A stretch of DNA of 64,000 nucleotides from an uncultured Actinomycetota bacterium (GTDB lineage: Bacteria > Actinomycetota > Actinomycetes > DATJPE01). The position numbers and the translations under genes are program-made. The stretch spans positions 1,496,672 to 1,560,671 of the forward strand of contig CAVTPM010000015.1 of NCBI GenBank assembly GCA_963736655.1, read 5' to 3'. Below the pieces are notes generated by a model. It saw only the letters and a program-made list of their open reading frames with translations. It ran no database searches and was not told where the DNA came from. Shown in pieces: positions 1 to 39,414 of the stretch; the first letter of the stretch is position 1; every line of letters starts with the position of its first letter.

Positions 1-564
1 GCCCGCGAAGCGCTCCACGGCGACTGGGTCATCAGCAGCCACCTCGACTGACTCGGCCAAGAGCGACAGGGCCGCGACCGGGGTCTTCAACTCGTGACTG
101 ACGTTCGCCAGGAAGTCGCGGCGAACGTCGTCGACGCGTTGCGCCTCGCTCGAGTCGTCGATGAGAACGAGGACCCGCCCCTCGCCCAGCCGAGCAACCC
201 TGAGGGTGAGCTCCACGGGACGGCCCCGGCCGCGAGCTTGTCGGACCCGCAGAGTCCGCGGTCGGCCGTCCTTCCGGACCGCGCCGACGGCCCTGGACAC
301 CTCGGCGTGTCTCAGCTCGCCGTCCCGCACCACCCCGAGAGCGACTGCGCTCGGGGCCACTCGCACCAAGTCGTCGTGACGGTCCAGCACCAACGTCGCC
401 GAGCGAAGGACGGCAAGCACCTGCTCCATGCCCTCCGGGAGGGCTCCTGCGCCGGCGCTCTCCTCCGACCGCCCGTGGCGTGGCCCCACGCGAAGAGCCA
501 CGACTGCCACGCCAACGCTGACGAGGACCGCTCCCGCGAGCAGCGCGGCTCCGGTCGCATCCAC
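1..564 (-). CDS. senX3: Sensor histidine kinase SenX3/PhoR (N-terminal part; runs off the window)
   Basis: Not in the ORF track. Manual translation gives an N-terminal TM, then RRDFLANVSHELKTPVAALSLLAE (HisKA H-box). Divergent from phoU; TACTCT -10 lies 6 nt before GTG 564. Confidence 0.88.
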   Translation of the reverse strand, partial: MDATGAALLAGAVLVSVGVAVVALRVGPRHGRSEESAGAGALPEGMEQVLAVLRSATLVLDRHDDLVRVAPSAVALGVVRDGELRHAEVSRAVGAVRKDGRPRTLRVRQARGRGRPVELTLRVARLGEGRVLVLIDDSSEAQRVDDVRRDFLANVSHELKTPVAALSLLAESVEVAADDPVAVERFAG

Positions 565-614
565 CTGCACAGAGTAGGCGCCTGGCGGGGCCTTGCGGGA
601 CCCGGATGTGGACC

Positions 615-669
615 GTTCGCCTCAGGGTCACGCGATGTTGACCCGCAGTCGACGGACTGTTGACCGTGG
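615..669 (+). promoter_or_regulatory. PHO-box array (five 11-bp direct-repeat units) between senX3 and phoU
   Basis: GTTCGCC 615, GGTCACG 626, GTTGACC 637, GTCGACG 648, GTTGACC 659, all at exact 11-nt spacing; resembles the actinobacterial GTTCACC-N4 PhoP/RegX3 unit. Confidence 0.75.
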
Positions 670-743
670 GCCCGCCGATCTTGCGCACTTTCATGGCTAG
701 CCTGTCCTCACCCTTCTCGACCCCCATGTTCAGGAGCACGTCA

Positions 744-1400
744 ATGCGTGAGAGCTATCACGACTCCCTCGACGCGGTCACCGACCAGCTGGTCGTGATG
801 ACGCGCACTGTCGCCTCCATGATCGAGCGCGCCTCGGCTGCGCTCCTGGAGTGCGACCTCGCCAAGGCTGAGTCCGTGATCGCCCTCGACGAGGAGGTCG
901 ACGCCTTCGAGGCCGAGCTCGAGCTGCGCTGCACGGACCTGCTCGCCCTCCAGCAGCCGGTCGCCACCGACCTCCGACTGGTCACGGGCGCGCTGAGGAT
1001 GTCCGCGACCATCGAGCGGATGGGCGACCTCGCCCGGCACATCGCCAAGATCGCGCGGATGCGCTACCCGGACTCAGCAGTCCCCGACTCCCTACGGCCG
1101 ATCTTCGTCGACATGGCCAAGCAGGTCTCGGCGATGGGGCAGCGGGTCGGCGACGTCATCGCCGACAAGGACCTCAGCCTGGCCTACGAGATCGAGCGCC
1201 TCGACGACGGCGTCGACGACCTGCACCGCCAGCTGCTCCAGAGCCTGCTCAGCGGCTGGGACGGCACCGTCGAGGAAGCCGTCGACGTGACCTTGATGGC
1301 CAGGTTCTACGAGCGCTACGCCGACCACGCCGTCAGCCTGGCCCGCCGCATCGTCTACACGACCACGGGAACCCGCTACAACGAGCTCGAGAAGGGCTGA
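744..1400 (+). CDS. phoU: Phosphate signalling/transport regulator PhoU
   Basis: MRESYHDSL..., LQQPVATDLR, ERMGDLARHIA, RFYERYADHAV; AGGAG RBS at 732. Confidence 0.95.
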   Translation: MRESYHDSLDAVTDQLVVMTRTVASMIERASAALLECDLAKAESVIALDEEVDAFEAELELRCTDLLALQQPVATDLRLVTGALRMSATIERMGDLARHIAKIARMRYPDSAVPDSLRPIFVDMAKQVSAMGQRVGDVIADKDLSLAYEIERLDDGVDDLHRQLLQSLLSGWDGTVEEAVDVTLMARFYERYADHAVSLARRIVYTTTGTRYNELEKG

Positions 1401-1406
1401 CCCCGG

Positions 1407-2162
1407 TCAGCGACCCTGGTTCGCCACGGCCTTGATGGCGTCGGCGGCGGCTGCCGGGTCGAGATACTCCCCGCCCGGCACCGTGGGTCGCAGGTCGCCG
1501 TCGAGACGATAGACGAGCGGGATCCCGGTCGGGATGTTGAGGCCGGCGATGGCCTCGTCGGAGATGCCGTCGAGGTGCTTGACCAGGCCCCGCAGCGAGT
1601 TCCCGTGCGCGGTGACCAGCACCGTGTGACCCAGCAGGAGGTCCGGCACGACGCCGTCGTACCAGTACGGCAGCATCCGCTCGACGACGTCGGCCAGGCA
1701 CTCGGTGGCCGGCCGCAGCTCCGGGGCGAGGCCGGCGTAGCGTGCATCACCGGTCTGGGCGAACTCGTCGTCTGGGTCGATCGGCGGCGGCGGGGTGTCG
1801 TAGGACCGACGCCACAGCATGAACTGCTCTTCGCCGTAGGCCTCCAGCGTCGCCTTCTTGTCCTTGCCCTGCAGGGCGCCGTAGTGCCGCTCGTTGAGCC
1901 GCCACGAGCGGCGCACCGGGATCCACTGCCGGTCACAGGTGTCCAGGGCTTCCTGGGCCGTCCGGATCGCCCGCCGCATGACCGACGTGTGGAGCACGTC
2001 AGGGAGCACCCCCGCGGCCGCGAGCAGCTCGCCTCCGCGGCGAGCCTCGGCAAGGCCCTGGTCGGTGAGGTCGACGTCGACCCATCCGGTGAAGAGGTTC
2101 AGGGCGTTCCAGACGCTCTGACCGTGCCGTAGGAGGACGAGGGTGTACGGGCTGTCGGCCAT
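1407..2162 (-). CDS. gpmA: 2,3-BPG-dependent phosphoglycerate mutase
   Basis: [38 protein letters not shown]. Confidence 0.96.
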
Positions 2163-2171
2163 GAGGCGACC

Positions 2172-2721
2172 CTATCGAGGGGCGTGACGACCGCCGTCCG
2201 CCCCCTCGTCGCCGGCGGGGGAGCCGGACGGTCGGGCGGGGTCGGCGAAGCGGGCGAAGGCCGCGAGGTTGGCCAGGCTCTCGCCTCGCTTGAGCCGCCA
2301 CTCCCACTCCCGGCGGATCGAGGAGGCGAACCCCAGCTCGAGGAGCCGGTCGAACTCGTCGTCGGCGTAGGTCAGCACGCAGCCGAGCAGGCGGTCGACC
2401 TCGTCGCCGCTGACTGCCTCCAGCGGGACCCTCCCGACGAGGTAGACGTCGCCGAGGTGGTCGATCGGAGAAGTGGACTCCGTACAGCCGGGCGTTGCGC
2501 TCCAACAGGTGACGGTAGAAATCGGCGTGGTTCTCGTCGGGTCGGCGGACCACGAACGCCTCCACCAGCAGGCTGTGGTCCCCGACCACGAGCCAGGCGG
2601 CTGTCTGCAGCTTGTGCTGACCGGGGAGCGAGACCAGGAACGCGCCTTCTCGCACGTGCTCGTAGGTGATCTCACGCTCGTCCAGGGCGGCTCGGATCAC
2701 GTCGTCGAGCCGGACGGTCAT
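2172..2721 (-). CDS. YbjN-domain protein (frameshift near 2467)
   Basis: LPGQHKLQT...[18 protein letters not shown] continues in another frame as [11 protein letters not shown]...[16 protein letters not shown]; usual position between mshA and gpmA. Confidence 0.85.
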
Positions 2722-4010
2722 GACGAGGCCCGCACGGGCAGCGCGTGGTGCGTGGCCAACGCCTCCGCGTAGACCTGACGCATACCGTCGGCCGTCGCGT
2801 CCCAACCGAAGCCCGCGGCATGCGCCACCGCGCCCAGGCTCAACGTCGCCCGGCGGGACGGGTCGGCGAGGAGCGCCCCGAGAGCCTGAGCCCAGGCGCT
2901 GGGATCGTGCCCGGGCACGAGCACTCCGCTCCGACCGTCCGCGACCGCCGTGGTCAGGCCGCCGACCGCTGTGGCGACGACCGGGGTGCCGCAGGCCTGC
3001 GCCTCCACCGCCACCAGCCCGAAGGACTCGCTGTACGAGGGGACGACGACCAGGTCCGCCGCGCGGTAGTAGTCCGGGAGCATCCCCTGGCCGACCGGAG
3101 GATGGAAACGCACGACGTCGCGGATCCCGAGTGACCGGGCCAGCACGTCGAGGCTCTCGGGGTGTGCGAGACCGGATCCGCTCGGCCCGCCGACGATGGC
3201 CACCACGAGCCGCTCCCTCAGCTGGGGAGCATCGGACAGGAGCTGAGCTGCCGCCCGGACGAGCAGGTCGGGAGCCTTCAAGGGCTGGATACGACCGACG
3301 AACATGAGCACGACCGCGTCGACGGGGAGCCCGACGTGGCGACGGGCCCCTTCCTTCGACCCCGGGGTGAACCGTTCGAGATCCACTCCCGGGCTGACCA
3401 CCCGGACGCGGTCCGGCGCGGCGGAGTAGAGAGCCACGAGCTGGGCAGCCTCGTCGTCGGTGTTGGCGACCAACCGATCGGCGGCTTCCACCACCTGGGC
3501 CTCGCCGAGGCTGCGCATCGCCGGCTCCGGGGCGTCGCCCTCTGCCAGGGCGGAGTTCTTCACCTTCGCCATCGTGTGCATCGAGTGCACCAGAGGGACA
3601 TCCCACCGTTCTTTCGCCAGCCACCCCACCTGTCCTGACAGCCAGTAGTGGCTGTGCACGAGGTCGTACCAGCCGGGTTCGCGCTGAGCCTCGGCTCGCA
3701 GCACGCCACTGGTCACGGCGCAGAGCTGGCTCGGGAGGTCTTCCTTGGCGAGACCCTCGTAGGGCCCGGCGGCGACATGGCGGACGAGAACGCCTGGGGC
3801 CAGCTCGACCGTGGTCGGGAGGTCACTGCTGGTGGACCGGGTGAAGACCTCGACCTCGGTGCCCGCAGCCGCTAGCCGCCGCGCCACCTCGACGACGTAC
3901 ACGTTCATCCCGCCCGCATCGCCGGTGCCGGGCTGGTCCAGCGGAGACGTGTGGACGCTGAGCATCGCAACCCGCCGGGGGGTCTCCCGCACCACGCGAA
4001 CTCCGCTCAC
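2718..4010 (-). CDS. mshA: D-inositol-3-phosphate glycosyltransferase (mycothiol synthesis)
   Basis: [51 protein letters not shown]. Confidence 0.96.
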
Positions 4011-4176
4011 GTGCTCGATCCTCTCCGATCGGGGCCGCTCACCGCATCCCGGTCGGGACACCAGCCGCTCGCCGGGCCCACCGACGGGACGGTCCGAGAA
4101 CACCGGACGGAGCCGGTCCGATTCCCCGAGCGCGAGGGGCAGCGTCCGGCGCCGAACGGCCCGGTCGTGCCGTCGA

Positions 4177-4701
4177 CTAGCGAGGACGCCGCGCGAGCAC
4201 CTCAGCGAACACTTCGAGCGCCGCAGGGGTGAACAGGACGAACCTGGCCTCGCGGACCGTCGTCGGGGTGTTCTCCAGCGTCCCGATGCCGACCCGCGCC
4301 ACGTCGTCCAGCGGCCAGCGATAGGCACCCGCGGAGATCGCCGGAAAGGCGACCGACTCGGCTCCGATCGTGTCGGCGACCTGGAGACACTCGCGGAAGG
4401 CCGACGCCAGCAGGTGCGTGCGGTCCTGCTCGACGGAGAAGACCGGCCCGACCGTGTGGATCACCCAGCGCGCTCGGAGGTTGCCTGCCGTGGTCGCCAC
4501 CGCCTGGCCGACTGGAAGGCCCTTCGCCAGCCGCCCGGCCCGAAGCGCCCGGCAGGCCTCGAGGATCTCAGGACCTCCCCGGCGATGGATCGCTCCGTCG
4601 ACGCCCCCTCCCCCCATCAGCGAGGAGTTGGCCGCGTTCACGACGGCGTCGACGTCAGCGTCAGCGATGTCGCCCCGCTCGACGGTGATGCGCAGGCCCA
4701 C
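4177..4701 (-). CDS. Macro-domain O-acetyl-ADP-ribose deacetylase (YmdB-like)
   Basis: GDI...[39 protein letters not shown]. Confidence 0.92.
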
Positions 4702-4720
4702 GGCGGCTAGCCTGCCGCAC

Positions 4721-5280
4721 GTGGTGACGAACGGAGAACTCGGAGCGGGGTCCTTGCGCACCGGGCGCCTCGCGCTTCGGCGTTGGCAGCCCACCGACGT
4801 CAAGGAGCATTTCGACATCTACAGCCGTTGGGAGGTCGCCCGCTGGTTGGGCGCCGAACCGCGGGCGCTGACCTCGCGCGAACAGTCCGTCGCCGCGATC
4901 GAGCGGTGGGCCGGCCGCCACCGCTCTCCCTTTGGGTCTCTGGGCGGTGGTACCGGACGCGGTCGGTCACCCGGTCGGGAGCGTGCTCCTGGTCCCGCTG
5001 CAGGACAGCGACGGCAACCCGGCCGACGAGGTCGAGGTCGGGTGGCACCTGCACCCGGACCACTGGGGTCGGGGCTACGCCACCGAGGGCTCCAGGGTCC
5101 TGCTCGAGGCGGCCTGGACCGTCGGCCTCGGGGAGGTCTGGGCCGTGGTCCGTCCGGGGAACGAGCGGTCAGTCGGCCGTGACCGCGAGGCTGGGGATGG
5201 TGCCTCAGGGCCTCACCGAGCGTTGGTACGGCGTGCCGTTGGAGTCGTTCCGGGCGACGGCCCCTCACCACGGGCCGTAG
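4721..5280 (+). CDS. RimJ/RimL-type GNAT acetyltransferase (frameshifts near 4935 and 5170)
   Basis: LRTGRLALRRW / EVEVGWHLHPDHWGRGYATE...VRPGNERS / RLGM, spread over three frames. Confidence 0.82.
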
Positions 5281-5594
5281 GGCCCCATGTGCTGGCCGTC
5301 GTTGCGCCCACCGCCCCCGATCGATCGCAGGGCGGGCCGGACGTCGAGGAGGTACACCGACGCGGCGACGACCCCGACCAGACCGAGGCCGAACAGGCCG
5401 AGCGGACCGAACCACAAGGTGACGAGGCTGCCCAGGCCGATCAGCACCAGCCAGAACTGCTTGGTCTGCTTGTCCGCGGCGACGAAGGCCCGTGTCGGGC
5501 GGATCGCGGCGTCGACGAAGGCGAAGAGCTCGAGCACGAACAGCGCGAAGCCCAGCAGCTGCATGAGCCCGAAGTACGCGCCGAGGATGTTCAC
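5265..5594 (-). CDS. DUF2516 family membrane protein
   Basis: AFVAADKQTKQFW, VYLLDVRPAL, GPYGPW tail. Confidence 0.85.
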   Translation of the reverse strand: MNILGAYFGLMQLLGFALFVLELFAFVDAAIRPTRAFVAADKQTKQFWLVLIGLGSLVTLWFGPLGLFGLGLVGVVAASVYLLDVRPALRSIGGGGRNDGQHMGPYGPW

Positions 5595-5630
5595 AGCAGC
5601 GAGCCTAAGGGCGCGCTGCCGCCGCAGCCC

Positions 5631-6602
5631 TCAGGGGGACGGGCTGTCGATCGGGAAGAGGGTGCGGACCGCTCGAACCTGACCGACACGGAGCCCCCCG
5701 CCGAGCAGTGGCCACTCCGCCTGTTGAGCCACGACAGGAGCGTCGACGCCGAGAGCCGCGAGCGCCGCAGCCATGACCGGGGGGCGTGCGCGCTGACCGC
5801 CGTCGTCGATCTTGAGCGCAACGGAGCGACCGTCGGCGAGGGCGACCGCGTAGACCGCCTCGGCGCCGTCCTTGGCCACGAGCCCGGGCACGCCCCGGAT
5901 GAGGTCCGTGACGTCACGGTCGGTGCCGCCGAGCCACTCGGGGAAGGCCCGGACGGCCTCGTACGTGCGGCGCTCCGCGGTGCCCTCGCCTCCGAGTGCC
6001 CAGGCTCGGAACGAACGAGCGAGCCCGGTGAGGCTCAGTCCGAAGACCGGAGCACCGCACCCGTCGACGCCGGTGACGGTGACGGGCTCGCCCGCCAGGT
6101 CGGCCACCGTGTCCCTGAGCAGCCGCTGCAGCGGGTGCGCCGGGTCGCGGTAGGTGAGCAGGTCCCAGCCGTTGACGACGCACGTCGCCAGCATCGCCGC
6201 GTGCTTGCCCGAGCAGTTCATGGCGAGCGGTTCCGGTGCGCGACCGGACCGGATCCACGCGGCGCGGGGGATGTCGGCGTACGGGAGGTCGGGAGGGGTC
6301 TGCAGGGCGTCGACGTCGAGACCGACGCCCGCAAGGATCTGTCGCACGCCGTCGAGATGGAAGTCCTCGCCGCTGTGCGAGGCCGACGACAGCGCGAGGA
6401 GCGCTCCGTCCAGCTCGAGACCGGCCCGCAGCATCCCGATGGTCTGAAGCGGTTTGTTGGACGAGCGCGGGTAGATCGGCTCCTCGGGTCGGCCGACCGA
6501 GAAGAGGACGTCACCGTCGGCCGCCAGCGCCACCACGGAGCCGCGGTGTGCACCCTCGACGAAGCCGGACCGGACGACCTCAGCGACGACCGGCAGATCC
6601 AT
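5631..6602 (-). CDS. Asparaginase II family protein (Rhizobium AnsA-type)
   Basis: RSGFVEGAH, YPRSSNKPLQ, SHSGE, NCSGKHAAM, DGCGAP, AKDGAE. Confidence 0.9.
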   Translation of the reverse strand: MDLPVVAEVVRSGFVEGAHRGSVVALAADGDVLFSVGRPEEPIYPRSSNKPLQTIGMLRAGLELDGALLALSSASHSGEDFHLDGVRQILAGVGLDVDALQTPPDLPYADIPRAAWIRSGRAPEPLAMNCSGKHAAMLATCVVNGWDLLTYRDPAHPLQRLLRDTVADLAGEPVTVTGVDGCGAPVFGLSLTGLARSFRAWALGGEGTAERRTYEAVRAFPEWLGGTDRDVTDLIRGVPGLVAKDGAEAVYAVALADGRSVALKIDDGGQRARPPVMAAALAALGVDAPVVAQQAEWPLLGGGLRVGQVRAVRTLFPIDSPSP

Positions 6603-7150
6603 CAGCTGCCGGGGCTGAGCAGGGTCGACACGTCCGCCTCGCCGTCGCGGTAACGGCGGGTGATCTCCGCCGTCAGGGCGTCCATCACCGTCTGCACCCG
6701 ACGGCGCAGGCCGCTGACCATGCGCTCGTGCTCGGCGAGGGAGTCGAGGGAGGCCTGCAGCTCGGCGTCAGAGCGGGCGGCCACATCCGAGATGCCCACG
6801 TCGGAGACGATCTGCTCGACCTTGCGCCGGTGATCGTCCACCCGTGAGGGCTCCACGGTGAGGAAGCGGCCGGACCCATGGTCCGAGCGAGGTCCGTCGG
6901 CCAGGACCTGAGCCAGCAGGTCGATGAGCGGTGCACTGCCTTCCTCACCCCTGCGGGCCTGCTCGGCACGCACGAGGTCCATCCGTCCCTGGAGCAGGCG
7001 ACGCACGTACGACAGGTCCGCCTCCTCCTGCTCGGCGTCATGACGCAGGGCACGCACCTCGTCGAGCGATCGCTCACCCAGCCCGTCGAGGAAGTCCTCG
7101 GCGAGCACGCGGTCGATACGGCGTCGGCCGTTGGCCATCGGCTGGGTCAT
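6602..7150 (-). CDS. rsiG: RsiG/AmfC: c-di-GMP-binding anti-sigma factor of WhiG-type sigma28
   Basis: Two complete E-X3-S-X2-R-X3-Q-X3-D motifs (EADLSYVRRLLQGRMD; ERMVSGLRRRVQTVMD) and EITRRYRDGEA tail. The ORF track fuses it to the upstream gene because of a frameshift. Confidence 0.88.
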   Translation of the reverse strand: MTQPMANGRRRIDRVLAEDFLDGLGERSLDEVRALRHDAEQEEADLSYVRRLLQGRMDLVRAEQARRGEEGSAPLIDLLAQVLADGPRSDHGSGRFLTVEPSRVDDHRRKVEQIVSDVGISDVAARSDAELQASLDSLAEHERMVSGLRRRVQTVMDALTAEITRRYRDGEADVSTLLSPGS

Positions 7151-7993
7151 GCGGCCACCCCCGTGCGGTCCTTGGTGCGGAGCAGTTCGTGAGCCTGAGC
7201 AGTCGTCATCGGTGGTCGCTGCGCGAGCGTGGCGAGCTCGGCAGCGCGCTCGACCAGCTGGGCGTTGTCGCGGACCGGCTCGCCCCTGCGGAACGTCAGG
7301 GTGTCTTCCATGCCGACCCGCAGGTGACCCCCCGCTGAGAGCGCTGCCAGCGCCACGGGCAACGTCGAACGGCCCACGCCGGTAGCGGACCAGCTGGCCC
7401 CCGTGGGGGAGCGCCTGCACCGCCGCCACGAGCGCCTCGGCTGTGCCAGGCATGCCTCCCGGCACCCCCATCACCAGGTCGCAGTGGACGTGCCCGCCGT
7501 ACGGCAGCCCTTCTTGGTCGAGCAGCCGGTTGAGCGCGTGGACCTGCCCCAGGTCGAAGAGCTCGAACTCCGGCACCACCTCGCGGGCCTGGGTGAGCTG
7601 GTAGAGCTCCACCATGAACGGCCACGGGTTGAGGAAGACGTCCTCCCCGAAGTTGACCGTGCCGCAGGTCAACGAGCACGAGTCCGGCTCGGCGTCGAGC
7701 ACCGCCAGACGCGCGGCAAGAGGGTCATGGACGCTGCCCCCGGTCGAGAGCTGCACCACCAGCGAGGTGGCCTCGCGCAGGGCCGCCACCGTGTCGCTCA
7801 ACCGTGCCACGTCGAGCGTGGGCCGGGCGTCGGCGTCGCGGATGTGGACGTGGATGAGAGCGGCCCCCGCGGCCTCACAGGCGACACCGGTCGCGACCAG
7901 CTCCTCGAGCGTGACCGGCAGTGCCGGCGCATCGCTCTTCGCGGTCTCGGCGCCGGTCGGGGCGACCGTGATCAGCGTGTGCGTCGACGACAT
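7147..7993 (-). CDS. Beta-keto acid cleavage enzyme (BKACE/DUF849; frameshift near 7400)
   Basis: ITVAPTGAE, HVHIRD, QLSTGG, GTVNFG, PEFELFDLG; C-terminus GGHLRVGMED in a second frame. Confidence 0.9.
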
Positions 7994-8049
7994 GCGGTCA
8001 TGGTGTCACGTTCACCCGGATGGGGGTAAAGGCACACCGGCATCTGTCG

Positions 8050-8078
8050 CTCAACGTCCACGCGCAACCTGCCGATGG
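8050..8078 (+). promoter_or_regulatory. Putative sigma28 (WhiG/FliA)-type promoter
   Basis: TCAA(8051-8054)-N16-GCCGATGG(8071-8078), equivalent to CTCA-N17-GCCGAT, about 60 nt upstream of the DUF4388 start. Confidence 0.6.
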
Positions 8079-8139
8079 ACACGTACAAGCAGTGCGGCTG
8101 GACGTACGGCTGAGACGAGCGCGGGGAGGGAGCACGAGC

Positions 8140-10819
8140 ATGCTCGACGGAGACCTCCTCACCAACCAGGTGGAGCAGGTACTCCTTGACCTCGGCGCAC
8201 AGCAGGCGACCGGCTGCCTGACCGTGCTCGACGCCGCGGCCGAGGAGGCCGAGGTCTATCTGAAGGAAGGCCTCGTCTACTCGGTCTTCGTCCCGGGTCG
8301 TCGCCCGCTGCTCGGCTTCCGGCTGGTCTCGTCCGGCGACCTCGCGCCCGAGGCCCTGGCCGAGGCTCTCGAAGCTCAGCGCACCGAGCTGCAGGGCTGG
8401 CGGCTGGGAGAGCTGCTCGTGAACCTGGGGTACGTCGACCGCGACGTCGTCGAGTCCTTCGTCTCCGAACAGCTCGTCGACATGCTCGGTGACCTGCTCG
8501 GCTGGCAGGTCGACACCTGGCGCTTCCGCAAGAACAAGAAGGCGCGTCAGGACGTCGCTCCGCCGATCGAAGTCCCCGTGGTCCTCAACCAGGTCCGTGA
8601 CCGTCGGGCCCGCTGGGAACGGCTGGCCCACGAGATCGGCGGCCCCGAAGCCGTACCGACCCTGTCGACGCAGGAGGCCACCAACGACGACATCGTCCTC
8701 GGTTCCGGCGAGTGGGCCATGCTGTGCAAGATCGACGGCGACCGCAGCATCGCCGACCTGGCGATCGACTGCGGATTCACCGTGTTCGAGGCGGCCGAGA
8801 TCGTCGCCACTCTCGTGTCGGCCGGACTGGTCGACGTCGAGAACGACCTCGAGCACGACCCCTTGGTGGACGTGGCAGACCACCAGGTCTCTGCTGGCTC
8901 CGGCTGGGACGACCTCCCCGAGCCGACGCCGGAGGAGCTGGCCGCTTCGGTCGCCCAGGTCACCGCGGCGCTGGCCGGCATGTACGGCGAGACGCCCTCG
9001 GCGCAAGACACGGTCCCCGCACCCGCCGATGCCCCCGCTCCCCCTGATGCGGCGGCTCCCGCCGGATGGCAGGACCATCTGGCGTGGGTCGAGGGCCAGC
9101 GCCGGCAGGCCGAGGGCGAGGCGATGGCCGCCCGGGTCGAGGCCGAGCAGCTGGCCGAGCAGGCGCGGATCGAGCGTGAGCAGAAGGCCGCCGAGCGGGA
9201 ACGTCGCCGCCTCGAAGCCGAAGAGGTGGCGCGGGCCGTCGAGGAGGCCCGGCAGGCCGAGCTCGCCCGGATCACCGAGGAACGCTCCAAGGAGCAGTCC
9301 AAGAAGGAGCGCAAGGAGCGCAAGGCCGTCGAGGCGGCCGCATGGGACGAGCACGCCGCGTGGCTGGTGGCCCAGCGGTCGGCCGTCGAGGATCAGGCGT
9401 GGCAGGACCACCGCGCCTGGCTCGCCGAGCAGCGCGCCGCCGCCGAAGGACCCGCCTACGAGGAGCACGCCGCGCGACTCCGCGCGGAGCGCGCCGCGGT
9501 CGAGGACGAGGCGTGGGCGGCGCACGACGCCTGGGTGGCGGACGAGCGCGCCCGCGCCGAGGAGAACGCCTGGCGGGAGCAGGCACGAGCGGGTCGCGGC
9601 CGAGAGGGCTGCGGCCGAGGAGCCGGCCTGGGCCGACCATGCCGCCTGGCTGCTCGCCGAGCGCGCCTCGGTGGAGGAGCAGGCCTGGGAGGACCACGTC
9701 ACCTGGGTGGCCGACCGGCTTGCCGAAGAGGCGCACGCCGCCGAGGAGGCCCGCCTCGCCGAGGAGGCTGAGGAAGCCCGCCTCGCCGAAGAAGCCCGCC
9801 TCGCCGAAGAAGCCGAGCCCGCCTCGCTGAGGAAGCCGGGCGAGCCGCCTCGCCGAAGAAGCCCGCCTCGCCGAAGAAGCGAAGCCCGCCTCGCTGAAGA
9901 AGCCCGCCTCGCCGAAGAGGCCGGAGGAAGCCCGCCTCGCCGAAGAAGCCCGCCTCGCTGAGGAAGCCCGCCTCGCCGAAGAAGCCCGCCTCGCCGAGGA
10001 AGCCCGCCTCGCCGAGGAGGCCCGCCTCGCTGAGGAAGCCCGCCTCGCGAGGAGGCCGAAGAAGCCCGCCTCGCCGAAGAAGCCCGCCTCGCCGAGGAGG
10101 CCCGCCTCGCCGAAGAAGCCCGCCTCGCAGAAGAAGCCGAACTCGCCCGCCTCGCTGAGGAAGCCCGCCTCGCCGAAGAAGCCCGCCTCGCTGAGGAAGC
10201 CCGCCTCGCCGAAGAAGCCCGCCTCGCTGAGGAGGCCGAACTCGCCCGCCTCGCCGAAGAAGCCGAACTGGCCGAAGAGGCTCGCCTGGCCGAGATCGCT
10301 GAGGAGGAGGCCAGCCTCGACGAGGCCTCGGAGCGCGCGGAGGAAGCCGCCGAGGCTGAGCGACTCGCCGAGATCGCGGCCGAGGTCGCCGCTCTCTCTG
10401 ACCTGGCACCCGGCCGACCCCACGAGTCCGAAGAGGCGGCAGTCGACGTCCGCTCGCTCGAACCCGCCGATGCCCCGTCGACCACCGAGATGATCATGCC
10501 GCTCGTGGCAGCCGACGAGACGACGGCCGCCTCATGGGAGTCCTACGGGCCGTCACCGTCGGCCGTGCTGGCGGCACTCGCCAAGGAGGCTCCGGCCGCT
10601 CAACCCGCCGAAGACGTACCCGACGAGGAACCGGTTCTCACCATGGCAATGCCGGTCATCGACCGCTCGATGACGGACACGGCGTCCCTGCTGCGTGAGC
10701 TGTCGGGGCTGTTCCACGCTGACGACCCAGCTCCGACGAAGCCCACGACGCCGAGCCCGCGGCCCGCACCCGCGCCGGCGCCGCCGAAGAAGAAGAAGGG
10801 CTTGTTCGGCCGAGGCTGA
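8140..10819 (+). CDS. DUF4388 (PatA-N-like) domain protein with long repetitive helical region and KKKKGLFG C-terminus (several frameshifts)
   Basis: GDL...[15 protein letters not shown]...VYLKEGLVY...[12 protein letters not shown]...[18 protein letters not shown]...LVSAGLV; GGGAG RBS; reading continues through repeats to [11 protein letters not shown]...[12 protein letters not shown]. Confidence 0.78.
9343..9740 (+). repeat. About 7 tandem 19-aa (57-bp) W-x-x-H-x-x-W repeats in the DUF4388 gene
   Basis: [19 protein letters not shown] / [19 protein letters not shown] / [19 protein letters not shown] / [19 protein letters not shown] / (frameshifted unit) / [19 protein letters not shown] / [15 protein letters not shown]. 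Confidence 0.85.
9742..10295 (+). repeat. 18-bp tandem repeat (GAAGAAGCCCGCCTCGCC-like) encoding EEARLA
   Basis: More than 20 imperfect copies visible, with indels that break the frame. Confidence 0.92.
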
Positions 10820-10839
10820 TCGCCTGGGACGATCGTCGG

Positions 10840-11299
10840 ATGCGCGTGGTCGTCCAGGTCGCGAGCGAGGCGTCCGTGGTCGTCGACGGTGACGTGGTCG
10901 GTGTGCTCCACGAACCAGGACTGGTCGTGCTTGTCGGCGTCACCCACACCGACACCCCTGACTGCGCCGTCCGCCTCGCCGCGAAGGTCCACGCCCTCCG
11001 GATCCTGGCCGGCGAGCGTTCCGCCGCCGACCTCGGCGCACCGATCCTCGTGGTCAGTCAGTTCACGCTGTACGCCGACACAAGCAAGGGGCGGCGACCC
11101 TCTTGGTCAGCGGCCGCACCGGGCGCCGTCGCCGAACCCCTCGTGGCGGCCTTCGTCCAGGCCCTGCGGGATCGCGGAGCGAGTCGTGGCAACAGGCGAG
11201 TTCGGCGCCCACATGCAGGTCAACCTGGTGAATGACGGGCCGGTGACGCTCGTCCTCGACGAGCCGTCCCTCGCTCCCGGGCCTAGATTTCAGGGATGA
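10840..11299 (+). CDS. dtd: D-aminoacyl-tRNA deacylase (frameshift near 11180)
   Basis: [18 protein letters not shown], then [19 protein letters not shown] in the next frame. Confidence 0.93.
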
Positions 11300-12078
11300 C
11301 CACCTCCGCGAGCACCACCCCTGATGCGATCCGGTTCCGCAACCTGCGCCGCTACAACGTGATCATGGGCGGCATTCATGCGCTGCAGGCCGTCGCCGTC
11401 CTCGCTCTGGCCACGGCCTTCCTCCTGCCCGTGACCGGAACGTTCCTGGCCGGGCCTCCCGGGACGGCGCCCGAGCCCGCGGTGACCTTGTTCTCGATCA
11501 ACGTCGCGTGGGGGGTCGCCCTGTTCCTCTTCTTGTCGGCGGGGGCCCATGGGATCATCGCCTCCGGCCCGTACTTCCCGCGCTACCGAGCGGGTCTGCT
11601 CGAGCACCGCAACACCGCTCGGTGGGTCGAGTACGCGCTGAGCTCGTCCATCATGATCGTCCTGATCGCCGAGCTGACCGGCATCACCGACGTGGCCGCA
11701 CTCGTCGCGTTGTTCGGCGTGAACGTGTCGATGATCTTGTTCGGGCTGGTGCAGGAGAAGTACCAGACACCCGGAGACGGCGGGATGCTGCCGTTCTGGC
11801 TCGGCTGCATCGCCGGGGTCGTCCCGTGGATCGCGATCGGCATCTATCTCGTGACGCCGGGCAGTTCCTCCACGGCCCCGGGGTTCGTCTTCGCGATCTT
11901 CTTCTCGCTGTTCGTGTTCTTCAACTGCTTCGCCGTCAACCAGTGGCTGCAGTACAAGCAGGTCGGCAAGTGGCGCGACTACCTGTACGGGGAGACGGTC
12001 TACGTCACCCTGAGCCTGGTGGCGAAGTCGCTGCTCGCCTGGCAGGTCTTCGCCGGCACCCTCGCGCCGACCGGCTGA
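11296..12078 (+). CDS. Heliorhodopsin (HeR)
   Basis: 7 hydrophobic segments; LRRYN...IHALQ, AHG, NTARWVEYALSSSIM, MILFG, YLYGETVYVTLSLVAKSLLAWQ (retinal-binding Lys in SLVAK); TAGATT -10 lies 6 nt before the ATG. Confidence 0.95.
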   Translation: MTTSASTTPDAIRFRNLRRYNVIMGGIHALQAVAVLALATAFLLPVTGTFLAGPPGTAPEPAVTLFSINVAWGVALFLFLSAGAHGIIASGPYFPRYRAGLLEHRNTARWVEYALSSSIMIVLIAELTGITDVAALVALFGVNVSMILFGLVQEKYQTPGDGGMLPFWLGCIAGVVPWIAIGIYLVTPGSSSTAPGFVFAIFFSLFVFFNCFAVNQWLQYKQVGKWRDYLYGETVYVTLSLVAKSLLAWQVFAGTLAPTG

Positions 12079-36690: not shown

Positions 36691-37518
36691 TCAGACCGGC
36701 GCGGCCTCGGATGCATTCCCCAGCCGGGCGACCAGGCGGGCCTGGTTGCGCCGACCCACCCAGGCGATGACCGGGTGGAGAGCGAGGGCGAAGTCAGGGA
36801 CCGCCCCGATAAGGCGTACCTCCGCCCCACGCCAGCGCGGCACGGAGACGACCCGGCGCGGTCGGCGCAACGTCGAGAGCGCCCGAACGACGACCTCCTC
36901 CGGAGTGACGAGGCGCAAACCGCTGAACGTCAGGACCACCGCCGGGTCGGCGACGACGTCACGGATCATCGGGGTGAGCATCCCGTCGGGGCAGACCACG
37001 GTGAACCGGACCCTCCGCTCCCCCTGAGCGCGAAGCTCGGCCTCGAGTCCGAGGGTGAAGGACAGCACACCAGCCTTGGTGGCCGCGTAGACCGACTCAC
37101 CCGGCACTGGGGTCCATGAAGCCAGCGACCCGACGTTGATGACCTGCCCCCCCGCGTGCTGACGCATCACGGCCACGGCGGCGCGGGTCCCGCGGATCAC
37201 CCCCAGCAAGTTCACCTCGACGACCCGGTCGACGACCTCGTCCGACTGCGTGGCGGCGTCTCCTGAACCGAGCACGGCCGCGTTGTTCACCCAGAGCGAG
37301 GGCCGCAGCTCCTGAGCGAGCGAGCGAAGGGCGGCTCCGTCGCGGACGTCGACCCTCCGGTCGGCACCGTCCAGATCGACTCCCACCACGTGCCACCCGA
37401 GTCCGCGGAGCTGTCGAACGAACTCAGCGCCCAGCCCGGCACCTGCCCCGGTGACCACGGCCGTCCCTTTGACGGTGACTCCGACCGGCTCCTCGGAGCC
37501 GCCCGCCGCTGCCGTCAC
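36691..37518 (-). CDS. SDR oxidoreductase
   Basis: TGAGAGLG, VNNA, YAATK. Confidence 0.9.
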   Translation of the reverse strand: MTAAAGGSEEPVGVTVKGTAVVTGAGAGLGAEFVRQLRGLGWHVVGVDLDGADRRVDVRDGAALRSLAQELRPSLWVNNAAVLGSGDAATQSDEVVDRVVEVNLLGVIRGTRAAVAVMRQHAGGQVINVGSLASWTPVPGESVYAATKAGVLSFTLGLEAELRAQGERRVRFTVVCPDGMLTPMIRDVVADPAVVLTFSGLRLVTPEEVVVRALSTLRRPRRVVSVPRWRGAEVRLIGAVPDFALALHPVIAWVGRRNQARLVARLGNASEAAPV

Positions 37519-37835
37519 GCCGGCTCACAGCTGACGTGCGTGCTCGCCCAGGGCAACGCCTCGAGCCGCCCCTCGGGGATGGGCCGACCGCACCGGTCGC
37601 AGGTGCCGTAGCTGCCGTCCCGTCGCTTGGCCTGCGCCCGCAGCACCTCGAGCCTCAGCTGCAGGAACCGGTCGTGCGTGGCCACCTGGGTGAGCCGCTC
37701 GACGGCGATCGACGTCCCGTCACCCACACGCTTGCCGAACGAGATGTCGCCCGCCTGCTCCGGTGGTGCCGTGAGCGCGGCGATCTCGTCGTCGAGCTCG
37801 GCGAGCTTGCCGGCCAGCACCGCATCGACGTCCAT
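37515..37835 (-). CDS. TraR/DksA-family zinc-finger protein
   Basis: GSYGTCDRCGRPIPEGRLEALPWASTHVSC. Confidence 0.88.
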   Translation of the reverse strand: MDVDAVLAGKLAELDDEIAALTAPPEQAGDISFGKRVGDGTSIAVERLTQVATHDRFLQLRLEVLRAQAKRRDGSYGTCDRCGRPIPEGRLEALPWASTHVSCEPA

Positions 37836-37893
37836 CGCCCCAGCCTGCCTCATCGCATGGTCCTGCGAGGTACATCGCGGAACGGCAGACCGC

Positions 37894-39414
37894 TCACCCG
37901 AGAGTGAAGGACGGGTCGTGCGGCAGCTCGAGGGTGTCCATCTGCGCCTTCTGCAGCCGACCGCTGACGTCCCAGTTCATCGCCTGCCAGCGCGTGAACT
38001 GGTCCAGCACCCAGATGCCCGACTGCCGCGAACCGTTGCCCGAGCGGCCGTTCCCGCCGAAGGGGAGGTGCGCCTCGGCACCTGAGGTCGAGTTGTTGAC
38101 CGACACCATCCCGGCTCCGACCCGGGCCCGGAAGTCGAAGGCCTGCTTGGCGTCGCGGGTGTAGATGGCGGCCGACAGGCCGTATCCGTGCCCGCTCGCC
38201 AGCTCCACGGCTTCGTCGAAGCTGTCGAAGACACCGAGCCCTACCAGGGGACCGAACGTCTCCTGGTCGTAGAGCGCGTCGCCTGCCCGGACGCCCTCCA
38301 CGACCGTCGGGTGCGCGTAGACACCACGGTCCGGGTCTCCGACGAACCCAGCGCGCGGGTTCCCGGACGTGATGCGACCGACGCCCGTCGAACCGTGCAC
38401 GGACTGGTGGGCGGCGACCAGCTCGAGATTGCGTTCGTGGTTGGCGAGGTAGCGCTCCGAGAGCATCGGGCCGTACAGCACCGCCTCGTGGGGGTCACCG
38501 ACCACGGCAGCCTCGACCGCCGCGACGAAGGCGTCCCGGAAGGTGACGTAGACCTCCCGGTGCACCCAGGCGGTGCCGAGGCTCGTGCACCGCTGCCCCG
38601 CGGTGCCGAAGCCGGAGAACAGCGCGCCCTCGACGGCGAGCGCGAGGTCGGCGTCCGGCATGACGACCAAAGGGTTCTTGCCTCCGAGCTCGAGGCAGGG
38701 GCTCTGGAGATGGCGGCCGCAGAGCTCGCCGATCGCGCGACCCACAGCCGTCGAGCCCGTGAACCCGACCTTGTGCACCAGTCCCTCGTCGAGCGCTCCC
38801 TCGAGGCCGGCGTAGGTGGTGGGGCCGTCGGCGATGACGAGCTCGAGGACTCCCTCGGGCACGCCGGCGTTCCGGAAGAGGGCCAGCAGCGCCTGCGCGA
38901 CACCGGCCGAGGTCTCCGCCGGCTTCCAGACGACCGCGTTGCCGCAGAGCAGCGCCGGGACGAGGTACCAGGACGGCACCGCTACCGGGAAGTTCGCCGC
39001 GGTGATGACCATCGAGACGCCGACCGGGACGCGGAAGGTGAACAGCTGCTTGTCGGCCATCTCGCTCGGGACCGTCTGCCCGTAGAGCCGTCGCCCCTCC
39101 CCGAGGAAGAAGTCGCAGGTGTCGACGACCTCCTGCACCTCACCGAGCGCCTCGGCGTACGGCTTGCCGACCTCACGCGTCACCAGGGCGGCGAGAGACT
39201 CCTTGTTGGCCTCGACCAGCCTGCCGACCTGCGCGACGACCCGGCCACGCACCGGGGCAGGGACGTCCGCCCAGGCCCGCTGGGCGAGCGAGGCACGGCG
39301 GCAGGCCGCCACGACGGCGGTGCTGTCGGCGAGCTGGATCTCGGCCACGATCTCGTCGAGATCGGCCGGGTTCCGCGTCTGGAACAGCGGGCCCGCACCA
39401 GGGGGCTGCGTCAT
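37894..39414 (-). CDS. Aldehyde dehydrogenase
   Basis: ANFP, FTGS, LELGGKN, GQRCT, ETFGP, PFGG. Confidence 0.95.
   Translation of the reverse strand: MTQPPGAGPLFQTRNPADLDEIVAEIQLADSTAVVAACRRASLAQRAWADVPAPVRGRVVAQVGRLVEANKESLAALVTREVGKPYAEALGEVQEVVDTCDFFLGEGRRLYGQTVPSEMADKQLFTFRVPVGVSMVITAANFPVAVPSWYLVPALLCGNAVVWKPAETSAGVAQALLALFRNAGVPEGVLELVIADGPTTYAGLEGALDEGLVHKVGFTGSTAVGRAIGELCGRHLQSPCLELGGKNPLVVMPDADLALAVEGALFSGFGTAGQRCTSLGTAWVHREVYVTFRDAFVAAVEAAVVGDPHEAVLYGPMLSERYLANHERNLELVAAHQSVHGSTGVGRITSGNPRAGFVGDPDRGVYAHPTVVEGVRAGDALYDQETFGPLVGLGVFDSFDEAVELASGHGYGLSAAIYTRDAKQAFDFRARVGAGMVSVNNSTSGAEAHLPFGGNGRSGNGSRQSGIWVLDQFTRWQAMNWDVSGRLQKAQMDTLELPHDPSFTLG

Follow-up and report, generated by a model that had tools for sequence, protein, structure and literature searches.

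Here, we describe a divergent gene pair in a 64 000-nucleotide stretch of DNA (the window) from an uncultured bacterium of the Actinomycetota (GenBank assembly GCA_963736655.1, contig CAVTPM010000015.1). One gene encodes RsiG, the anti-sigma factor of WhiG that depends on cyclic di-GMP (c-di-GMP), and the other encodes a large protein with a PATAN domain (DUF4388) in its head and a predicted helical rod behind it, referred to below as the PATAN rod protein. We consider it likely that the locus pairs a regulator with its target within the WhiG/RsiG/c-di-GMP switch and that the rod protein, which would be co-regulated with the pilus and polarity machinery, assists or regulates it. In the known systems, the complex RsiG-(c-di-GMP)2 holds the sigma-28-type factor WhiG, which is freed once c-di-GMP falls (PMC7005675; PMC8325347). 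The PATAN rod gene is probably a conserved output of this known switch that, as far as we found, had not been described before. An earlier note on this DNA had proposed the DUF4388 gene as an output of the anti-sigma switch encoded next to it, and comparison among related genomes supports that proposal through a single FliA/WhiG-family sigma factor, conserved synteny and a conserved promoter motif.

The predicted WhiG (sigma-28 type) promoter lies on the + strand ahead of the PATAN rod gene. Its −35 element, GCTCAAC (8049–8055, with the core TCAA at 8051–8054), fits the WhiG2 form T(A/C)AA, and its −10 element, TGCCGATGG (8070–8078, with the core GCCGA at 8071–8075), follows 16 nucleotides (nt) after TCAA. 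The TCAA-N16 motif that had been read as pointing at the DUF4388 gene was recovered on this strand: TCAA-N16-GCCGATGG occupies 8051–8078, with GCCGATGG itself at 8071–8078, and ends 62 nt before the ATG at 8140. Transcription is predicted from the position of the −10 element to start at 8084–8088 (+), and a Shine–Dalgarno sequence, GGGGAGGGAG (8123–8132, +), ends 8 nt before the ATG; GGAGG-type sites also stand ahead of the start codon in orthologues. A spacing of N16 is that of WhiG promoters and N15 that of flagellar sigma factors (PMC7005675), and the published WhiG2 consensus joins a −35 T(A/C)AA to a −10 GCCGA with a central CGA under a 200-nt rule (Denis et al. 2026, PMC13595943). No sigma-70-type promoters or intrinsic terminators were found in 5400–11300, and an Rfam search over 5500–11000 (E ≤ 1) gave no riboswitch and two sub-threshold snoRNA-like matches inside repeats. 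Public RNA contigs from three metatranscriptome runs (5–6% of words), placed on 6600–9200, cover only parts of 6948–7556, 8788–8809 and 9086–9118 and none of 7557–8774.

Orthologues were drawn from 41 related genomes of the class, which were searched with the 260-residue PATAN head, and from a scan of species-representative genomes, from which the best 80 of 90 relatives were taken. This gave 109 loci with a head match, of which 99 were distinct after removal of paralogue loci and identical upstream regions. The 41-genome counts take in five genomes flagged as unpublished, namely the rod carriers G029 and G037 (the sources of loci L031 and L023, respectively) and three others (G012, G020 and G035). 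The WhiG2 query, T(A/C)AA-N16-GCCGA within 200 nt of the start codon (the rule of Denis et al., PMC13595943), was matched exactly upstream of the gene in 89 of the 99 distinct loci, compared with 0.07 expected per 99 by first-order Markov resampling and none on the opposite strand (0/99). A relaxed motif, in which the second −35 base is either T or C and the base ahead of CCGA is free, is present with the same spacing in 96 of the 99. The ten loci that lack an exact match comprise seven with TTAA or TTAG at −35, two with a spacer that is off by one and one with GTCGA; nine of them differ from the query by one base or spacer position and one (L025) by two −35 bases. The 96 aligned sites give the consensus GGCTCAAC-N15-TGCCGA(T/A/G)G. 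This promoter block is the sole conserved block of the leaders, which are about 38–114 nt long and otherwise unalignable, and three paralogue loci have no site directly upstream. The WhiG-type promoter before the PATAN rod gene is predicted to be real and used, and we hold this with good confidence.

The rsiG gene (6602–7150, − strand) encodes a twin-motif protein of 182 residues that matches PF22802 at 117.2 bits (cut-off 27) over two stretches. Both motifs noticed earlier are intact, the first as E43-x3-S47-x2-R50-x3-Q54-x3-D58 and the second as E142-x3-S146-x2-R149-x3-Q153-x3-D157, and in an alignment of 51 orthologues the ten motif residues are either invariant or at least 90% conserved. 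The synteny of rsiG and the DUF4388 gene recurs in relatives: rsiG lies upstream of the PATAN rod gene and divergent from it in 98 of the 99 distinct loci, being immediately adjacent in 74 and separated from it by a gene for a beta-keto acid cleavage enzyme (BKACE) in 25. The sole miss (L024) is a locus that ends inside the BKACE gene, and RsiG was found just beyond it in the same genome.

The host genome (G000; 3.51 Mb in 17 contigs, 70.7% G+C, completeness 81.7%) contains the sigma factor that such a promoter would call for. A single FliA/WhiG-family sigma was identified by TIGR02479 at 259.2 bits (cut-off 189.6; contig C15, 673299–673922), the next matches scoring 119 and 114 bits, under the cut-off; the gene neighbours an xerC-like recombinase gene and lies outside any flagellar cluster. 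The exact form T[AC]AA-N16-GCCGA occurs at 87 sites on both strands of the genome and CTCAA-N15-TGCCGA at three. The lone site would by itself be weak evidence; it is the conservation across loci that carries weight. By crude gene calls, 11 of the 87 exact sites fall in gaps within 200 nt of a start, and three of these 11 precede GGDEF or GGDEF-EAL genes (C15, 844060–845124 and 1850484–1852481; C2, 453118–454974), which are among the GGDEF/EAL genes present in the genome. These three are candidates for WhiG-controlled c-di-GMP enzymes, which would give a feedback loop on the switch. Other sites among the 11 precede genes for an SLT transglycosylase, a camelysin-like M73 peptidase, a CBM protein and a coiled-coil protein. 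With a matrix derived from the orthologous promoters, the window's own site scores 34.8 bits and the next best site in the genome 20.4 bits, a circular comparison that served for leads only. Within the window, a weak sigma-28-like site at 38071–38102 (−) was rejected as probably due to chance; it falls within a gene for an aldehyde dehydrogenase, and a DksA/TraR-type zinc-finger frame (37515–37853) follows 218 nt downstream of it.

The same class of promoter is found at a type IV pilus cluster on contig C15 (226000–239400; L136). The cluster was missed by the crude gene calls and its genes are frame-broken, and the order was read by hand over 226–239.4 kb: a Roadblock/LC7 (MglB-like) gene, an unnamed gene, a PATAN paralogue, a small gene, an MglA/CvnD-like GTPase gene, pilB, pilT, pilC, two pilin genes and minor pilin genes. 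The PATAN paralogue is shorter than the rod protein and has the same MshEN-like insertion and winged helix as the head of the rod protein, while the PilB of the cluster has an MshEN-type N-terminus of its own. Four sigma-28-type sites were located, one each ahead of the Roadblock gene, pilB, pilA and a minor pilin gene. This arrangement of genes and sites is seen again in 14 relatives (L137–L150): 13 have a site 36–98 nt ahead of the Roadblock gene, eight have one ahead of pilB (six with the full core) and nine have one between pilB and pilT. In many relatives, the nearest paralogue of the rod-protein head sits in the pilus cluster. The paralogue and the shared promoter type lend indirect support to the idea of a polarity, pilus or differentiation scaffold that had been raised earlier. 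Because the same promoter type precedes pilus genes, the MglB-like/PATAN/MglA-like operon and GGDEF/EAL genes, the rod protein most likely assists or regulates the machinery of pili and polarity under shared control. That it acts together with type IV pili is a tentative proposal, to which we assign slightly less than an even chance.

The PATAN rod gene (8140–10819, +; about 890 codons) was delineated from three-frame translations and intact orthologues. As the earlier note had read, it is a large DUF4388 gene: its product matches PF14332, and the conserved C-terminus of the family is reached at 10819. Orthologues that are complete read as one frame of 835–964 residues. The 120 best homologues are metagenomic throughout and are labelled as DUF4388 or hypothetical proteins, with an 'FtsK/SpoIIIE-like' label on two of the 120 that comes from a single naming source. 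The head (residues 1–245; 8140–8874, +), as defined by PF14332 and AlphaFold2, consists of a PATAN β core, a helical insertion and a winged helix. The PF14332 match covers residues 4–138 at 33.6–36.1 bits (cut-off 25), and the family is matched in 64 of 64 orthologous heads. The AlphaFold2 model, calculated from the 64-sequence alignment, has a mean predicted local distance difference test score (pLDDT) of 91.7 and a predicted template-modelling score (pTM) of 0.85, and it places helices 58–64, 70–82, 89–95 and 101–120 between strands 45–50 and 124–131. The nearest clusters in the ESM Atlas are PatA_N only. A Foldseek search of the whole head against the PDB gave no match at E ≤ 0.001; the MshEN part alone stands out.

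The helical insertion (residues 55–113; 8302–8478, +) is a candidate c-di-GMP site, as indicated by NF053729 ('c-di-GMP motif, MshE-related'), which matches 62 of the 64 heads at E ≤ 0.01, and by superposition. It contains two 24-residue motifs of the form LG..LV..G.L/V....L...L..Q. The insertion superposes on MshE with bound c-di-GMP (5HTL) with a root-mean-square deviation (r.m.s.d.) of 1.3–1.4 Å over 57–60 residues (33–35% identity) and on the GSPII-B domain of PilF (8PDK) with an r.m.s.d. of 1.7 Å over 58 residues; a profile of the heads compared with solved structures gave 2.1e-12 for PilF, 3.1e-5 for MshE and 1.6e-4 for PilB. Contact residues are taken here as they are reportedly listed for MshEN. 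The second motif is canonical (RLG..LV..G.V....V...V..Q), with Arg88 kept in 57 and Gln111 in 60 of the 64 heads, and the first retains Leu58, Gly59, Leu62, Gly66, Leu68, Leu73, Leu77 and Gln80, with the conserved Arg55 and Arg61 nearby. The tandem 24-residue motifs, the superpositions at 1.3–1.7 Å and the canonical second motif are shared with MshEN proper, whereas the version in the rod protein sits within a PATAN domain and not at the N-terminal end of a secretion ATPase, has no arginine ahead of LG in its first motif and has a spacer of seven residues between the motifs. The spacer in MshE has five residues. We would give even odds to the prediction that the head binds c-di-GMP through this site.

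The winged-helix domain (residues about 160–237; 8617–8850, +) was recognized by VIA-align, with a Z score of 8.8 to the winged-helix parts of GATOR1 and Rv2067c and of 6–6.7 to Lrp, AsnC and MarR; weak matches to MarR_2 and HTH_20 occur in ten and seven of the 64 heads, respectively. The head is followed by an acidic linker, a long repeat region, a conserved peptide, a proline-rich stretch and a Lys/Arg-rich end. The repeats (9055–10402, +, read from the translations) are acidic and rich in Ala, Glu, Arg and Leu, consist of AW..H units and then EEARLA hexads and are predicted to form a helical rod. In a single-sequence model of the L048 orthologue, helices 424–548 and 562–739 have a pLDDT of about 75–86, and the linker and tail are disordered. 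Because the leucines of the EEARLA hexads fall on three helix faces, we infer a single stiff helix or rod instead of a classical coiled coil. Comparison of orthologues identified a conserved C-terminal peptide of 14 residues (10673–10714, +), with (T/A)DTA(A/S)LLRELS present in 33 of the 33 loci that reach the gene end, and a basic-hydrophobic tail of ten residues (10787–10816, +) that is a candidate membrane-targeting sequence, 32 of 33 tails being Lys/Arg-rich with G(L/F)F(G/S)(R/F/L/G) no more than two residues from the stop. The tail seems to resemble the membrane anchor of MinD. No receiver (REC) domain was matched in the window protein, and intact orthologues show the linker, rod and tail instead; membership in the PatA-type response regulators, which would require a REC domain after the PATAN domain, was ruled out. 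A predicted complex of the PATAN head and RsiG (both aligned) received a score of 0.01 and a mark of 0.32, which gives no support for a contact and does not speak against one.

Taken together, the following course of events is proposed. A fall in c-di-GMP would lead RsiG to release WhiG, and free WhiG would bring RNA polymerase to GCTCAAC-N15-TGCCGATGG (8049–8078), with transcription starting near 8085 and the PATAN rod gene being expressed from its ATG at 8140. Along with it, WhiG would transcribe the genes of the pilus cluster, the MglB-like/PATAN/MglA-like operon and genes for several c-di-GMP enzymes. More speculatively, the MshEN-like site of the rod protein may bind c-di-GMP, its tail may tether it to the membrane and it may act on the pilus motor or the polarity module, paralleling the PATAN domains of cyanobacteria. 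Sequence conservation, synteny, folds and family matches are observed in this scheme, and transcription by WhiG, ligand binding, membrane anchoring and the partners are inferred. A fuller, two-layer circuit can be imagined, and we put it forward as a speculative and rather unlikely elaboration: the rod protein would be a second-tier c-di-GMP receptor that is made only once c-di-GMP has fallen and RsiG has released WhiG, and that is tethered to the membrane by its tail, with a PATAN/MshEN head on a rod of tens of nanometres engaging PilB or PilC or the MglA-like GTPase, such that pilus activity or polarity would be re-gated by local c-di-GMP.

Several observations weigh against, or qualify, the interpretation of the locus as a target pair linked to pili. 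The dependence of the PATAN rod gene on WhiG, RsiG and c-di-GMP is predicted from sequence, and in this assembly the gene does not form one unbroken frame. The genome-wide promoter scan used crude, GC3-based gene calls. With a matrix made from 29 pilus-cluster sites alone, the PATAN-rod site of the window scores 20.3 bits, and 98 of the 99 PATAN-rod upstream regions exceed the 99th percentile of resampled controls (85 exceed the control maximum); the pilus sites were chosen by a regular expression of the same form, however, so that the core columns are not independent and only the flanking columns add independent weight. The link to pili rests on co-regulation, the paralogue and co-occurrence in related genomes, which are not independent of one another. 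The NF053729 score of the MshEN-like insertion is close to the cut-off of 38 (38.9 bits for the head alone and 37.3 for a 543-residue frame), and its first motif is without the arginine before LG (position 57 is Arg in two of the 64 heads and mostly Gln, Leu or Ala). Finally, the rod protein does not follow RsiG and PilB throughout. Among the 41 sampled genomes, a PATAN-rod orthologue was found in 26 and a weak match only in one more (paralogues lie near E 1e-25). RsiG was found in 35 and a PilB match (E ≤ 1e-60) in 33, in both cases including all 26 carriers. RsiG and a PilB match occur together in 32, of which 26 have the rod protein and six lack it with this query; it is present in none of the other nine. 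The smallest carrier (G015) is about 1.4 Mb in size, and in G034 (about 8.5 Mb, RsiG present) no PATAN-rod match was obtained with the head query. This nesting of the rod protein within the genomes that have both RsiG and PilB is suggestive only, the genomes being related and not independent.

The alternative that best survives is one in which the PATAN rod gene is a WhiG target with a product unrelated to pili, namely a scaffold for development, division or the envelope, or a DNA-binding regulator that uses its winged helix. The likeness of the winged helix to Lrp, AsnC and MarR regulators would suit such a role, as would the other candidate WhiG sites that precede genes for the SLT transglycosylase, a YkuD L,D-transpeptidase and the coiled-coil protein, the control of sporulation regulators by WhiG in Streptomyces (PMC7005675) and the six genomes with RsiG and PilB that are without the rod protein. 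Against this, each of the 26 genomes with the rod protein also has a PilB match, the closest paralogue of the head is encoded in the pilus cluster in many relatives, PATAN domains of cyanobacterial regulators bind the pilus motor components PilB1 and PilC (bioRxiv 10.1101/2021.06.11.447907) and the winged-helix fold also serves protein contacts, as in GATOR1, the top match by Z score. We regard a protein unconnected with pili as somewhat unlikely.

It is improbable that the conserved block is read by a factor other than WhiG, either a different sigma factor or a DNA-binding protein with a sigma-28-like site. Both half-sites, the 16-nt spacing and the strand are kept in 96 of the 99 loci while the spacer varies freely, which is the pattern of a two-block promoter, and the match to the WhiG2 consensus is without mismatch in 89. 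Moreover, the same block precedes pilus genes, which in Rubrobacter radiotolerans are WhiG targets with mapped starts (PMC8325347), and the gene is always found beside rsiG. What keeps such a factor under consideration is that the −10 element ends in a G-rich GATGG, not GATAA, and that a second conserved element, GTGTCAC, lies in the same gap, where other factors may act; the start site and the dependence on WhiG are themselves predictions.

The frame breaks of the locus, which the earlier note overlooked, raise the question of whether the PATAN rod gene and the BKACE gene are real pseudogenes of a module that is decaying in this host. The PATAN rod gene runs in frame 1 to about 9585, passes through about six frame changes up to 10049 and continues in frame 2 to 10819. 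In the BKACE gene, which had been read without notice of any break, the frame shifts at C/G homopolymers (7398–7409), and a further 1-nt difference from relatives occurs near 7994–7998, making one or two breaks in all. Decay of this kind is very unlikely. The changes in the PATAN rod gene all fall within the tandem repeat, where each stretch is of the EEARLA type in some frame, and the head, promoter and tail are intact. In two loci of the same genus (L037 and L040) the repeat region likewise runs into off-frame reading. The break in the BKACE gene is in homopolymers, and an independent metatranscriptome contig (151 nt, 99% alike) has exactly one base fewer at 7405. Because the essential-looking whiG is also split over two frames (C15, 673299–674100; L001) and the completeness of the genome is 81.7%, the breaks are most likely to be assembly indels, of which this assembly seems to contain many, and not decay. 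Chance occurrence of the promoter motif in a gap rich in G+C, as the 87 exact genome-wide matches to a loose consensus might suggest, is refuted by its retention in 89–96 of the 99 loci.

In this lineage, rsiG is the second gene of a three-gene operon on the − strand, the ends of which overlap as described in the earlier note. The first gene (7147–8001) encodes BKACE (DUF849; PF05853, 199.8 bits over profile positions 2–200 of 274), the C-terminal part of which is in another frame that shares its ATGA end with rsiG (stop and start overlapping at 7147–7150). The last gene (5631–6602) encodes an L-asparaginase II (PF06089, 349.2 bits), and its start overlaps the stop of rsiG in TGATG (6600–6604). 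BKACE probably starts at the ATG at 8001 rather than at 7993; the two codons are 8 nt apart here and 9 nt apart, in frame, in five of five loci of the same genus. The gap to the PATAN rod gene, previously given as 146 nt, does measure 146 nt as then read (7994–8139), but with BKACE starting at 8001 the true gap would be about 138 nt.

A conserved GGTGTCAC element of unexplained role (8002–8009) abuts the start codon of the operon, reading CGTGACACC-ATG on the − strand. GTG(T/A)CA was found in the upstream region of 64 of the 99 distinct loci, mostly right after CAT, with the 7-mer CATCGTG in 47 loci and CATGGTG in 39. The element adjoins whichever gene comes first in the rsiG operon, be it BKACE or rsiG (upstream regions of L007–L116). 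The element is specific to this locus: the 11-mer GTGACAC(C/G)ATG is not enriched across the genome, with ten found and 12.6 expected. Because no Shine–Dalgarno sequence precedes the start codon that the element abuts, the rsiG-operon transcript may be leaderless. Elsewhere in the genome (C2, 114846–115550, −), a 235-residue frame encodes an RsiG-like paralogue in which one E-x3-S-x2-R-x3-Q-x3-D motif is intact and the second is degenerate; a second PF22802 match is also present in most relatives that have RsiG. After the PATAN rod gene, 10840–11235 (+) reads like a D-aminoacyl-tRNA deacylase gene (dtd), by translation only.

The locus agrees with the switch of Streptomyces venezuelae and R. 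radiotolerans in its twin-motif RsiG, in the single WhiG-type sigma encoded outside a flagellar cluster, in the promoter form (a TAAA/TCAA-type −35, N16 and a GCCGA −10) and, as in Rubrobacter, in the pilus genes that share the promoter type. The known WhiG targets of Streptomyces are whiH, whiI and vnz15005 (PMC7005675), and the main texts on the two organisms name no PATAN/DUF4388 target and no gene divergent from rsiG (PMC7005675; PMC8325347). In the predicted regulons of Denis et al. (PMC13595943), c-di-GMP enzymes (GGDEF/EAL) are the commonest class of target, and type IV pili, predicted targets in several families, and regulators are also main classes; the consensus, the 200-nt rule and the main target classes recur here. 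By contrast, neither the main text nor the csv supplements of that study mention DUF4388 or PATAN, with the limit that its Table S4 is by accession only and that an unnamed cluster in it could hold the family. The regulon search was restricted to genera with at least two genomes; Sporichthya is absent from the tables, Acidothermus is represented by a single genome and cultured Frankia are without WhiG or RsiG (PMC13595943). In the literature searched, in agreement with what the earlier note had said of the linkage, we found no description of a PATAN/DUF4388 protein as a WhiG target or as the partner gene of rsiG, the unnamed cluster of the accession-only Table S4 being a place where relatives could be held.

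Two other groups of proteins invite comparison. The cyanobacterial PatA-type PATAN-REC regulators (PatA, PixG, PixE and LsiR) have, like the rod protein, a PF14332 domain whose helical insertion of two units is similar to the N-terminal part of pilus ATPases, and they are linked to type IV pili, as is proposed for the rod protein (bioRxiv 10.1101/2021.06.11.447907). The rod protein differs in having no receiver domain, in its winged helix, its rod of several hundred residues and its basic tail, and in being controlled, as proposed here, by a sigma/anti-sigma pair and not by phosphorylation. In the MglA/MglB polarity modules that occur beside PATAN genes, the arrangement is like that of the head paralogue of this genome, which lies between the Roadblock/LC7 (MglB-like) and small GTPase genes upstream of pilB; the copy linked to rsiG is much longer and occupies a separate locus, and the stretch examined shows neither a GTPase gene nor a Roadblock gene next to it.

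The WhiG/RsiG/c-di-GMP switch is structurally well understood, and its outputs beyond Streptomyces and Rubrobacter are mostly predictions. Here, one target accompanies rsiG itself in about a hundred genomes of many families, including a very small genome, and no better candidate than the PATAN rod gene is at hand for a core, or ancestral, output of the switch in these lineages. If the two-layer circuit holds true, the fixed place of the gene beside rsiG in actinobacterial genomes of 1.4 Mb to 5.2 Mb would make it the core conserved output of the WhiG2–RsiG switch outside Streptomyces. The arrangement would link two types of c-di-GMP receptor, RsiG and the MshEN-like site, to the type IV pilus and polarity machinery, and it places in context a large family of unstudied proteins whose database names are no more than 'DUF4388 domain-containing' or 'hypothetical'.

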